Position numbers and translations under genes: made by a program. From a virus (Duplodnaviria; Heunggongvirae; Uroviricota; Caudoviricetes), in IMG/VR virus record IMGVR_UViG_2537562020_000004: a DNA stretch of 26,889 nucleotides. The stretch is one strand, 5' to 3'. Positions 4,883 through 5,743 of this stretch are shown here, in pieces (the stretch's first letter is position 1; the number at the start of each line of letters is the position of its first letter). Below the pieces are notes generated by a model. That model did no database searches. It saw nothing but the letters and a program-made list of their open reading frames with translations, and was not told the DNA's origin.

Positions 4883-5743
4883 TTACACGTGTTTTTCCAA
4901 TGTGAAAACTACAGCCCCGGCAGGAGTAATGTCTGTAATGTTGCATTCAAACTCAGCAGACTTATTTGACAACCTGACTTTTCCACCGGGCAAGCGAATT
5001 ACATCAAAAACATCAAGAGCGCCGTCGATATCAATTAACCAGCGACCATTACTTATATTCGAAGCAGAACAGTCGACAAGCCAAGAGGCAGCTACACCGT
5101 CAACAAAAATCAATTCCCCTGAGTTAGAAGGAATCATTGAGGGGTCAGGATGCCACGTTCCTGCATCCTTAAGCTCACCAGATTCAAGACGAGATTTTTT
5201 AATAGAAAAACCAGATGTGACATCTTCCCTGTTAGCTCGCATTTGCCCCTTGCCTGTTGCTAACCATTCCAGTGACGTATCGGTATCAAGAGCGCATGTA
5301 ACAACAACATCACCAGGGAAAAAATCTCGCCTTACCCATGTGCTAATTGTGCCAGAGGAAATGCCGAGCAAATCACCGAGCTCCTTTTGCATGGTAAAGC
5401 CATACGCATCAAGAATCCTACGCAAAACGGTTTTACCACCATTCGTCATAATCTCGTCATAAAGCTCTTTGCCTTTTAACTTGCAACTGGCTCGCTCGTG
5501 ATTTGCATTTGCAAGTTCTCCATTTACAAGCCAATTGATATCAGCTCCCGTGTCAAGACAACACCTAACTATGACATTGCCAGGTATTGCATCACGCTGA
5601 ACCCAGCCGCTAACGCTGTGTTTAGCGATACCTAGCAGGTCAGCCAAATCCTTTTGCATCTTGACCCCATAGGCTGACATTAAGCGTTCCAATACGCCGT
5701 TCGTTGCACTAACACGCCACTGAACATCAAGCTCAGAACTCAT
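4883..5743 (-). CDS. cI: CI-type immunity repressor with a tandemly duplicated N-terminal HTH domain
   Basis: 286 aa. Residues ~16-76 and ~103-163 are about 50% identical to each other (VLERLMSAYGVKMQKDLADLLGI... versus VLRRILDAYGFTMQKELGDLLGI...). Both resemble the 186 CI N-terminal domain (VLDRICEAYGF...). The position is divergent from the lytic operon. Confidence 0.85.
   Translation of the reverse strand: MSSELDVQWRVSATNGVLERLMSAYGVKMQKDLADLLGIAKHSVSGWVQRDAIPGNVIVRCCLDTGADINWLVNGELANANHERASCKLKGKELYDEIMTNGGKTVLRRILDAYGFTMQKELGDLLGISSGTISTWVRRDFFPGDVVVTCALDTDTSLEWLATGKGQMRANREDVTSGFSIKKSRLESGELKDAGTWHPDPSMIPSNSGELIFVDGVAASWLVDCSASNISNGRWLIDIDGALDVFDVIRLPGGKVRLSNKSAEFECNITDITPAGAVVFTLEKHV

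Follow-up and report, generated by a model that had tools for sequence, protein, structure and literature searches.

A 186-type CI repressor with a second, N-terminal HTH head, and a proposed division of labour between the two heads

Repressors of the 186 type have one DNA-binding head per subunit, and the puzzle of 186 itself is how this single head reads two unlike operator types. What, then, is a second head for? This question is raised by a 26,889-nucleotide stretch of viral DNA (IMG/VR record IMGVR_UViG_2537562020_000004; hereafter the window), whose cI immunity repressor gene, an ORF with an ATG start at 4883..5743 on the minus strand, encodes 286 aa. The original prediction was that this repressor carries two tandem copies of the 186-type HTH domain and a single C-terminal domain, compared to the one head and about 192 aa of 186 CI; the latter was confirmed as 192 aa, encoded by a 579-nt CDS.

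The Pfam analysis returned exactly the layout that had been predicted, two Phage_CI_repr domains and one CI C-terminal domain. PF07022 (Phage_CI_repr) matched the full protein in two stretches (176 bits, E 1.3e-52) and, when the halves were searched separately, residues 1-91 scored 82.6 bits and residues 92-178 scored 99.8 bits, so either half alone exceeds the curated cutoff of 22 bits. The protein reads HTH1, linker, HTH2, linker and C-terminal domain. HTH1, the variable head, comprises residues 16-76 (5516..5698, minus strand), with its recognition helix at about residues 41-49 (KHSVSGWVQ), while HTH2, the conserved head, comprises residues 105-165 (5249..5431, minus strand), with its recognition helix at residues 130-138 (SGTISTWVR). 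BLASTP of one half against the other gave 37/74 identities (E 4e-25), and in the right register 31 of the 61 positions are identical between residues 16-76 and 105-165, compared to a mean of 4.0 (sd 1.9, maximum 14) in the shuffle control. The predicted count of 31 in 61 therefore stands, although the second copy had been placed two residues off, at about 103-163.

The C-terminal oligomerisation domain (residues 180-277; 4913..5206, minus strand) is of the 186 type: it matched PF16452 (Phage_CI_C) with 74.3 bits (cutoff 27), and Foldseek superimposed it on 2fkd_A with a TM score of 0.87 (normalised to the target) and an rmsd of 1.6 A (E 5.9e-10). The AF2 monomer model has an all-beta domain at 181-283 (pLDDT 85-90), and with a pTM of 0.52 and linkers below pLDDT 50 it does not fix the relative placement of the domains. 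No Peptidase_S24 domain (PF00717) was present among the Pfam matches up to E = 1, and the fold matches to LexA C-terminal domains were weak (TM 0.4-0.6, rmsd >4 A); by the S24 criterion, CI is not a self-cleaving repressor of the LexA or lambda CI type. No NCBIfam model matched the 286-aa CI at its cutoff. A gene fusion or frameshift artefact was rejected, since the same frame and length occur in hundreds of independent sequences. Thus, both HTH domains in the product of 4883-5743 are genuine, and a single C-terminal domain of the 186 type comes after them. It is a 186-type repressor by its PF07022 head and by a PF16452 domain with the 186 fold, and it departs from the one head per subunit (~190 aa) of that type.

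The genomic setting of cI is also that of 186. The order int (3473-4513, minus strand), cI, facing promoters, apl-like gene, cII and replication gene (7806-10028) is the one found in PSP3 and 186, with cI adjoining int and facing pR and the operon of the apl/cox-position gene, cII and the replication gene. The apl/cox-position gene (5865..6236, plus strand; 123 aa, phrog_3554), a homologue of PSP3 gp30 placed by synteny with PSP3 and 186, has a weak Cox-like match to phrog_575 (E 1.5e-4) and no Pfam match, and its family differs from that of the 186 gene in this position (PMC3448106). The cII-like activator gene (6269..6778, plus strand; ATG at 6269, mechanical ORF from 6239) matched PF06892 (Phage_CP76) with 157 bits. 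In 186, induction goes through Tum, an antirepressor under LexA control, and not through cleavage of CI by itself. A putatively LexA-controlled operon with a Tum-like part is present here: a perfect LexA box (10103-10122) lies ahead of a 60-aa ORF (10142-10324), which does not resemble the N-terminal half of Tum, and of a DinI-like ORF with 47% identity to the other, C-terminal half. Note that 186 CI (PDB 2fjr, 2fkd), despite sharing both domain families and the C-terminal fold, is only 29% identical in the structural alignment, and that its alignment is confined to residues 105-280, which hold HTH2 and the C-terminal domain. P2 C and lambda CI are likewise immunity repressors of a lysis-lysogeny switch with an N-terminal HTH, but their sequences are unrelated or distantly related, they have one head per subunit, and the CI described here has no Peptidase_S24 match. 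The 186-type CI is about twice as large as P2 C (PMC3448106), which is described in PMC2995052 as binding direct repeats.

The two-headed form proved not to be unusual. CI is 97.9% identical to the 286-aa CI of Salmonella phage PSP3 (NP_958086), with few substitutions, the same length and the same neighbours. The suggested survey of repressor lengths recovered 731 homologues; nearly all of the top 120 are 278-290 aa long, and this form fills Enterobacterales prophages. Prophages of this kind occur in many Enterobacterales besides E. coli, of whose complete genomes about 1% have one, and two heads are present in 72/72 analysable full-length relatives from other species. Among the best 50%-identity clusters of the HTH family, 42 of the 148 representatives (~28%) have at least two heads. 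By its layout, length and clade placement, CI is a member of the PSP3-type two-headed group (Eganvirus PsP3 and relatives). The architecture is therefore common, as the original prediction had allowed, but the known structure that it coupled to this is that of the one-headed 186 CI, and no solved structure has two heads. We found no paper describing the head duplication; PSP3 CI has been described as having 'a longer C-terminal domain', with the second HTH unmentioned (PMC3448106), a description of the extra length that our results correct to a second HTH head.

The domain tree indicates that the PSP3-type head duplication is an old event and not a recent one, because the HTH1 domains and the HTH2 domains each form their own clade across genera. 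At least three other two-headed lineages look like separate duplications. As in the window, the CI of Klebsiella phage 4LV2017 (313 aa) and the representatives P0156 and P0239 have two PF07022 heads followed by one C-terminal domain, but these appear to be younger duplications, with heads that are 64-75% identical to each other and lie outside the PSP3-type HTH1 and HTH2 clades; in P0239 a LexA-like Peptidase_S24 tail replaces Phage_CI_C. In the NJ tree the HTH1 and HTH2 clades are not sisters, 73 other domains falling inside their common ancestor. HTH1 may have originated by fusion with a head from another CI, although the nearest outside neighbour is an HTH2-clade member for 70 of the 82 HTH1 domains.

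What the two heads might read was analysed in 72 related loci. The candidate early lytic promoter pR (5773..5801, plus strand; TTTACA - 17 nt - TATAGT, 10/12 matches in a consensus scan) has a frame that is also present in nearly all of these loci. In the window, two direct repeats, CTACAGATAATTTTATGGGTG and TTACAGAAAACTTTTTACGATC (5752..5795), lie 22 bp apart, upstream of, over and downstream of the pR -35, and are the candidate HTH1 operators of this immunity class. They are A/T-rich and do not form a clean palindrome. They repeat at 22 bp, and the pR operators of 186 have this same spacing of two turns (PMC3675496). Both are kept in the class-mates L006 and L007 and differ in loci with other HTH1 helices; PSP3 shares this pR region, with one base changed in the distal repeat. 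A third TACAGAnAA copy at 5977 was rejected as a chance match, since 2/100 shuffles reach three copies and it is not kept in L006.

Among the relatives, the HTH1 domains have a mean identity of 58% to one another, with invariant core residues and with the variation concentrated in the recognition helix (helix 3), of which there are 25 variants; HTH2 helix 3, in contrast, always fits the pattern [AST][AG]T[IMV]S[AT]W[FILV]R. The palindromes within the 17-bp pR spacer differ by HTH1 class (for example TCCCGCAAAATGCGGGA, TGCCGCATAATGCGGCA, ATCCATATGGAT and AATCGCATTTGCGATT). Pairs of loci with the same HTH1 helix and a different HTH2 helix have a spacer identity of 0.81 (n=15), compared to 0.45 (n=104; baseline 0.39) in pairs with the same HTH2 helix and HTH1 helices no more than 5/9 identical. 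The partial Mantel correlation with the pR spacer was r=0.69 for HTH1 and 0.28 for HTH2, among loci that are related and hence non-independent. Moreover, when the window was compared to L008 and L009, cII and the apl-like gene were 83-98% identical, and HTH2, the C-terminal domain and the first part of the DUF2511 gene were mostly 72-92% identical, with only 37-72% in between, over 5823-5523. HTH1 and the pR operators thus form a divergent cassette of about 300 bp, the sole strongly divergent part between phages that are otherwise 80-98% identical. These results suggest that HTH1 reads the phage-specific pR operators, and they bear out the expected link of the extra head with operator layout and with the specificity of immunity.

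HTH2 behaves differently. It is 79% identical among the two-headed CIs, and its codons have an amino-acid entropy of 0.1-0.8 bits while their third positions have mostly 1.2-1.9 bits. Because these third positions are mostly as variable as elsewhere in cI, HTH2 is under strong constraint at the protein level. Its closest counterparts are the 196-aa CIs of Ewingella, Rahnella and Chimaeribacter prophages (L080-L085), which have one PF07022 head and a PF16452 domain, and no HTH1. The only head of these CIs is 77% identical to HTH2, compared to 44% for HTH1, has the recognition helix LSSGTISTWVRR in common with the two-headed CIs, and falls inside the HTH2 clade in the domain tree. HTH2 plus the C-terminal domain thus corresponds to a full single-HTH CI.

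The single-HTH phages also indicate where HTH2 might bind. Their pR spacer palindrome, ACTTGCAnnnnCAAGT, which lies within pR itself, recurs at fixed flanking positions in the two-headed loci. With this palindrome as the probe, 39 class representatives (225 kb) gave 75 matches, 47 of them at three fixed positions. In the window, the left copy, termed FL-like, is ACTTGCAAATGCAAAT (minus-strand reading) at 5501..5516, inside cI, where it encodes E76-N81 in the linker between the heads. The right copy, termed FR-like, is ATTTGATTATGCAAGT (minus strand ACTTGCATAATCAAAT) at 6237..6252, after the apl-like gene ends and before cII starts. Both are candidate HTH2 sites and both occur in PSP3, where the FR-like site, ACTTGCAAAATCAAGT, is a better palindrome and is identical to the pR operator of the single-HTH locus L080. 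The motif was matched at the FL-like position in 28 of the 39 HTH1 classes and at the position equivalent to FR-like in 19; the FL motif is absent in Lonsdalea (L048-57), and the FR-like site in most Serratia loci. The FL-like site has the lowest third-codon-position variability in the whole of cI (0.90-0.93 bits, compared to ~1.6-1.9 in most other segments of the gene, among 38 diverged classes), and the amino acids encoded there are not especially conserved. Its modal offset from the HTH2 core, -85 nt, is that of the pR operator in single-HTH phages. Finally, the motif variants go with the HTH2 helix variants: the STATISTW group has TTYGAAAATTCG, and the SGTMSAW group has ACTTA(A/C)A...T(G/T)TAAGT. 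Note that support for the motif is entirely cross-locus and positional, since the window alone has no enrichment, with 4 matches to CTTGCAAATGCAAG at up to three mismatches (4.25 expected) and 22 to CTTGCANNNNCAAG at up to two (32 expected). Taken with the constraint on the head itself, the motif positions and variants suggest that HTH2 reads the conserved flanking sites. The search for operators led to two kinds of candidate: the 22-bp-spaced repeats at pR, and a conserved palindrome on either side, at a distance of about 270 bp on the left and about 470 bp on the right.

In this PSP3-type (Eganvirus) prophage, CI is a 186-type repressor with a second, N-terminal HTH head, and we consider it somewhat probable that the two heads divide the work, HTH1 on the immunity-specific operators and HTH2 on the conserved flanking sites. 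The C-terminal domains would assemble CI as in 186, into dimers and possibly a wheel of dimers, of which the 186 wheel has seven. Pairs of HTH1 heads would bind the phage-specific operators overlapping pR and so set the immunity, and pairs of HTH2 heads would bind the conserved palindromes on both flanks of the switch, one inside cI and one before cII, which are 16 bp long and of the ACTTGCA-nn-TGCAAGT type. Binding at pR and at the flanks together would produce long-range looping or wrapping, as 186 CI does with FL and FR. In 186, three pR operators lie two helical turns apart, and the distal FL and FR sites, about 300 bp away, loop to the wheel (PMC3675496). The candidate sites of the window, as sequences, recall this arrangement, but the left-hand one is placed between two heads instead of after a single head. 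According to its title, Shearwin et al. 2002 deals with one HTH that binds two distinct recognition sequences, and the annotated FL and FR of 186 (TTCAC-N5-GTGAA) differ in sequence type from its pR operator region (site types from the GenBank annotation and PMC3675496; we found nothing in the literature on A-type and B-type operators). What one head does in 186 would here be split between two. The doubled valency on one kind of site that had been predicted is thus not what the comparative sequences point to, which is heads with different jobs.

The view closest to that prediction is a composite operator, in which both heads of one subunit would occupy adjacent half-sites at pR, like a covalent dimer with doubled valency, the distal palindromes being incidental. 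In its favour, the pR sites of the window are direct repeats and not palindromes, and a short conserved (C)GATC, which could be the half-site of the constant head, abuts the pR -10 beside the variable part in 18/34 classes. Moreover, in Serratia an HTH2-type site overlaps the pR -35, next to an HTH1-type palindrome, so the two classes of site are not strictly separated. However, the element in the pR spacer is in many classes a symmetric palindrome, both halves of which change together with HTH1, as fits two identical heads and not HTH1 with HTH2; the single-HTH-type sequence is absent from pR in most two-headed classes and present at the fixed distal positions; and the GATC might instead belong to the promoter or be a site for Dam. 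We regard the composite operator as unlikely.

It is also conceivable, and we think slightly less probable still, that HTH2 no longer reads DNA and has become a structural spacer or a docking surface, for example for an SOS-controlled antirepressor. The protein-level constraint covers the whole domain and not just the recognition helix, and the LexA-boxed operon with its Tum-like C-terminal half is present. The FL-like palindrome could then be a relic of the ancestral operator, or a junction for recombination that has been conserved: it sits precisely where the variable cassette ends and conserved DNA begins, and the -85 offset is expected of a relic. But a relic would decay, and the FL-like site is instead the third-codon minimum of cI; the same motif appears again in the non-coding spacer before cII; its variants follow those of the HTH2 helix; and this helix is identical to that of the single-HTH CIs, which must bind DNA. 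That HTH1, the more divergent copy with the lower Pfam scores, is a degenerate or decoy head, CI acting through HTH2 as an ordinary one-headed 186-type repressor, is very improbable, given that HTH1 still matches the domain profile in each of the 72 loci (52-173 bits), its invariant core, the focus of its variation in a recognition helix that matches the pR spacer changes, and the lack of an HTH2-type site at pR in most classes.

If the two heads do divide the work, HTH2 with the C-terminal domain would be the older unit, which retains the old type of site, and HTH1 with the pR operators would be the cassette that diverges or is exchanged, creating new immunities while the rest of the switch is untouched. 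A more tentative proposal, which we hold with somewhat less than even confidence, is that the two heads split the two operator classes read by the single 186 CI head, that the inter-head linker is a former promoter and 5' untranslated region now read through, with the ancestral operator still working as a flanking site, and that immunity evolves through this one cassette of about 300 bp, recurrent head duplications being the same route to new immunities. For the linker part of this proposal, the main basis is the -85 offset that both kinds of phage share. To obtain direct proof that the operator was included in a tandem duplication, the 150 nt before HTH1 were compared with the 150 nt before HTH2, and the DNA similarity was not significant in either the window or phage 4LV2017 (z ~2.3-2.4). 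The inter-head linker resembled the 5' region of single-HTH cI genes in two pairs (z 5.2 and 3.2), six others being not significant.

The 186 switch, whose repressor forms a protein wheel on which DNA is wrapped and looped, is among the best-studied cases of its kind. If the proposed division is true, two-headed CIs would be a widespread natural system in which both site-reading functions can be separated by mutation, and it would explain both how so small a cassette can give rise to new immunities and why heads have been duplicated repeatedly in the family. New here, from the 72 related loci, are the HTH1/pR covariation, the HTH2 constraint and the fixed flanking palindromes, and with them candidate operator sites are now given for these prophages in E. 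coli and other Enterobacterales.

Finally, some weaker elements lie between pR and the FR-like site. A possible lysogenic promoter pL facing pR (5855..5883, minus strand; TTGATT - 17 nt - CATTAT) was picked out by eye as a guess; it has 8/12 consensus matches, below the promoter-scan threshold, in a position analogous to the weak pL of 186. A weak HTH2-like site, AGATGCAAAATCAATCT (5870..5886, direct repeat D4), lies over its putative -35, and a second weak copy is at 5901-5919; these are three-mismatch matches whose position is conserved in several classes. An inverted repeat at 5914-5948, with 14-bp arms, is only partly retained in relatives.

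Our results confirmed that the ORF at 4883-5743 (-) codes for a CI repressor of 286 aa with, as the original prediction proposed, two HTH domains followed by a single C-terminal domain. Pfam identified PF07022 (Phage_CI_repr) in two stretches, with 176 bits in total, and PF16452 (Phage_CI_C) at residues 180-277. When the halves were scanned apart, residues 1-91 and 92-178 scored 82.6 and 99.8 bits, respectively, with PF07022, whose curated cutoff is 22 bits. In support of this, the two halves aligned with 37/74 identities (E 4e-25). The predicted identity of about 31/61 positions between the heads was exactly 31/61 on recounting (shuffles 4.0 +/- 1.9, maximum 14); the correct register is residues 16-76 (HTH1) versus 105-165 (HTH2), since the second interval had been placed two residues off (~103-163). 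The AlphaFold2 model (mean pLDDT 77) has three parts: a helical domain (17-74), a long helix (92-114) continuing into a second helical domain that extends to residue 163, and a beta domain (181-283), with low-confidence linkers at 78-86 and 170-177. The predicted beta domain superimposes on the 186 CI C-terminal domain with a TM of 0.87 and an rmsd of 1.6 A. CI belongs to the 186-type family by both domains, fold and gene context, but carries two heads where the canonical 186 layout has one. Indeed, the 192-aa 186 CI aligns only to residues 105-280, corresponding to HTH2 and the C-terminal domain.

The protein is 99.7% identical to the CI of Escherichia phage vB_EcoM-613R3 and 97.9% identical to that of Salmonella phage PSP3, so it is essentially the PSP3 CI. 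The surrounding 1.8 kb (4500-6300) was found in 67/5426 complete E. coli genomes. The gene order is int, a DUF2511 secreted protein and cI, with the apl-position gene, cII, small genes and the replication gene on the opposite strand. This order is also that of PSP3 and 186, except that in 186 no other gene separates cI from int. The DUF2511 gene located there (4536-4874, (-); signal-peptide-like N-terminus MKCKLFLALLLTLSFGASA) occurs in PSP3, SW9 and Midge as well; it may serve lysogenic conversion as part of the repressor operon.

How widespread is this architecture? A search of 5.8 billion proteins recovered 731 CI homologues, the best 120 of which were nearly all 278-290 aa long. A scan with one genome per species gave 80 loci, 74 long-form and 6 single-HTH; after leaving out L068 and L079, whose reading frames were unusable, two heads were present in 72/72 long-form loci. 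Their hosts include Citrobacter, Enterobacter, Kosakonia, Pantoea, Erwinia, Brenneria, Pectobacterium, Dickeya, Serratia, Rahnella, Lonsdalea, Buttiauxella and others. A two-head profile searched against 1.84 billion cluster representatives retrieved 1207 proteins; the best 148 with usable domains had one head (106), two heads (39) or three heads (3). Thus, the survey of repressor lengths called for in the original prediction established that the two-headed, 278-290 aa form is common. Whether it would also have a known structure had been raised as well, and here the answer was negative, since the solved structures are of the one-headed 186 CI only. Our literature search found no description of a two-headed 186-type CI; the comparison of P2-like regulatory regions (PMC3448106) ascribes to the PSP3 CI "a longer C-terminal domain". 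Being visible in domain databases and common, the two heads are therefore no surprise as such. What appears to be undescribed is that they differ in evolutionary behaviour and go with two classes of sites.

Mean identity over 62 core columns was 79% between HTH2 domains, 58% between HTH1 domains and 46% between HTH1 and HTH2. The six single-HTH CIs (L080-L085; 196 aa), from Ewingella, Rahnella and Chimaeribacter prophages in the same species scan, have a head that shares 77% identity with HTH2 and 44% with HTH1 and carries the HTH2 recognition helix, and their N-terminus (M-x-L-D-E-L-E-G-G-K) matches window CI residues 93-104. In a neighbour-joining tree, the HTH1 domains grouped in a single clade with no members other than first heads and short fragments, while the HTH2 clade also included full-length single-HTH CIs. 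Because of these identities, the shared helix, the tree and the matching N-terminus, HTH2 and the C-terminal domain together make up a complete conventional CI, to which HTH1 and the linker were apparently added N-terminally, once for the PSP3-type clade. HTH1 may have come from an internal duplication or have been captured from a related CI: the nearest outside neighbour was an HTH2-clade domain for 70/82 HTH1 domains, and the two clades were not sisters in the tree.

Head duplication seems to have recurred in this family, since other two-headed lineages (Klebsiella phage 4LV2017, 313 aa; the cluster representatives P0156, 327 aa, and P0239/P0260) have heads that fall outside both clades and are 64-75% identical to each other within the protein. 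In P0239, the two heads precede a Peptidase_S24 tail. Domain counts gave three heads in P0196, and hmmsearch stretch counts gave up to 4-7 weak copies in P0248, P0203 and P0170. In 4LV2017 (L004, 1350-1830), GTTCAC(A) occurs twice just upstream of cI (ACTTCACAAAAC, GGTTCACATAAAG) and twice in the DNA coding for the inter-head linker, a hint that this duplication also brought operator-like sequence into the linker; its upstream and linker regions did not align significantly. Note that in L056 (Enterobacter sp. EA-1) the HTH2 region loses its register (MQK-ISVICWISRPSAPHW), suggesting that this repressor gene is frameshifted and probably defective, and that the L059 ORF is truncated (254-270 aa).

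We aligned the codons of 38 representatives, each from a different HTH1 class. HTH2 amino-acid entropy in this alignment was 0.1-0.8 bits, while its third codon positions mostly showed 1.2-1.9 bits, the range seen elsewhere in the gene; the values dipped around the tryptophans, which have a single codon, and in a few further stretches. HTH2 conservation therefore reflects purifying selection acting at the protein level and not a recent exchange of DNA. Its recognition helix (helix 3) varies only within [AST][AG]T[IMV]S[AT]W[FILV]R; 25 distinct helix-3 sequences were counted for HTH1.

Nearly all loci carry, upstream of cI and on the strand opposite to it, the promoter frame TTTACA-17-TAnAGT (5773-5801 in the window), the candidate early lytic promoter pR. 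The 17-bp spacer and ~25 bp upstream vary among HTH1 classes, often as clear palindromes (TCCCGCAAAATGCGGGA in L076, TGCCGCATAATGCGGCA in L077, ATCCATATGGAT in L053, ACACGTTACGTGT in L034, AATCGCATTTGCGATT in Kosakonia and TCGCATTTTGCGA in Serratia), and the HTH2 helix is the same in several of these loci. Spacer identity was 0.81 when HTH1 helices were identical and HTH2 helices different (n=15 pairs), and 0.45 when HTH2 helices were identical and HTH1 helices at most 5/9 identical (n=104 pairs; baseline 0.39); note that the loci are related, so pair and site counts are not independent events. Partial Mantel correlations were r=0.69 for HTH1 and 0.28 for HTH2. Compared with L008/L009, the window is 83-98% identical in cII and the apl-like gene and mostly 72-92% in HTH2, the C-terminal domain and the start of the DUF2511 gene, but only 37-72% in 5823-5523, comprising the pR operators and HTH1. 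Since all of these phages have the same apl-position gene, the spacer changes do not follow it.

The window's class is the least clear, because its pR sites are A/T-rich and not obviously palindromic. The operator search proposed for 5744-5864 yielded, as candidate HTH1 operators, direct repeats at 5752-5772 and 5774-5795 (TACAGA(T/A)AA(Y)TTTT, 22 bp apart), kept in L006 and L007; their period corresponds to the two helical turns by which the three pR operators of 186 are spaced (PMC3675496). A GATC Dam site (5792-5795) abuts the -10 hexamer (cGATC-TATAGT), as in 18/34 HTH1 classes, and could either belong to an operator or make the promoter sensitive to methylation. These direct repeats and the abutting GATC would also suit a composite operator, with both heads of one subunit on adjacent half-sites at pR; we consider this unlikely, as the palindromes of other classes are symmetric and wholly variable.

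Where, then, would HTH2 bind? In the single-HTH phages, the pR spacer contains ACTTGCAAAATCAAGTT or ACTCGCAAATGCAAGTT. Probing 39 representatives of two-headed classes (225 kb in total) with this palindrome gave 75 matches that scored 11/14 or higher: 28 at +180 to +200 nt from the HTH1 start, 13 at -540 to -580, 6 at about -400, about 6 near -180 to -240 and roughly 22 scattered over the remainder. In the window, the FL-like candidate (5501-5516, ACTTGCAAATGCAAAT on (-)) codes for E76-N81 in the inter-head linker, and the FR-like candidate (6237-6252) lies directly past the apl-like gene stop, ahead of the cII ATG at 6269. PSP3 has GCTTGCAAATGCAAAT and ACTTGCAAAATCAAGT at these positions, the latter identical to the L080 operator. 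The motif showed no enrichment when the window was considered by itself. Its in-gene copy was absent from the Lonsdalea loci, and most Serratia loci had no right-hand site; the pR -35 of Serratia is, in addition, overlapped by a site of HTH2 type.

The in-gene site has the lowest third-position variability of the gene (0.90-0.93 bits in the 38-class alignment) with only moderately conserved amino acids (1.6-1.8 bits), pointing to constraint on the DNA itself. Moreover, the motif differs with the HTH2 helix: TTYGAAAATTCG in the STATISTW group and ACTTA(A/C)A...T(G/T)TAAGT in the SGTMSAW group. Both observations, and the intergenic position of the second site, speak against HTH2 being a partner surface or spacer and the in-gene palindrome a relic or junction sequence, a reading that suits the site's location at the cassette edge and that we regard as quite improbable. 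A decoy role for HTH1 is contradicted by the covariation of its helix with the pR spacer and by the joint divergence of HTH1 and the pR operators.

The left flanking site is ~270 bp from pR and the right one ~470 bp. As occurs in 186, where FL is inside cI and FR between apl and cII, one is in the gene and the other precedes cII; the 186 sites are annotated CI sites (TTCAC-N5-GTGAA), unlike the 186 pR operator region, and loop to the CI wheel at pR (PMC3675496). Alongside the observed layout, head asymmetry, covariation and site positions, we propose that HTH1 pairs would bind pR and set immunity, HTH2 pairs would bind the conserved flanking palindromes, and the C-terminal domains would join the HTH1- and HTH2-bound parts, as in 186. 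The inter-head linker may once have been a 5' region and may still bear the ancestral operator. In support of this, the in-gene site lies at a modal -85 nt from the HTH2 core (with in-frame variants), the operator-to-head distance in single-HTH phages, and 2 of 8 alignments of the linker with single-HTH 5' regions gave z of 5.2 and 3.2; direct similarity between the regions preceding HTH1 and HTH2 was not significant.

The apl/cox-position gene (5865-6236, (+)) encodes 123 aa with no Pfam match and a weak Cox-like match (phrog_575, E 1.5e-4, residues 48-110). Its PSP3 homologue was classed in a 2011 paper as a singleton with no detectable domains, and the Midge homologue is annotated as Cox on HHpred evidence. 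Inside the ORF, a strong inverted repeat (5914-5948, ATCAAACTGTGCTG / CAACACAGTTTGAT; 14-nt arms, 93% complementary, 7-nt gap) is only partly kept in L006, L009 and L012. A 334-aa ORF (11859-12863, (-)) adjoining the portal gene (12941-13987) sits at the variable-hotspot position of P2-like phages; it had no Pfam or PADLOC match, only phrog_11743 (unknown function).

Finally, a perfect LexA box (10103-10122, TACTGTATAAATATACAGTA) precedes a 60-aa ORF (10142-10324; phrog_1993, function unknown) and a 77-aa DinI-like ORF (10328-10561). The DinI-like ORF shares 47% identity with the C-terminal half of 186 Tum; the 60-aa ORF occupies the place of the Tum N-terminal half, to which no similarity was found. 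The arrangement resembles a split, SOS-controlled antirepressor operon.
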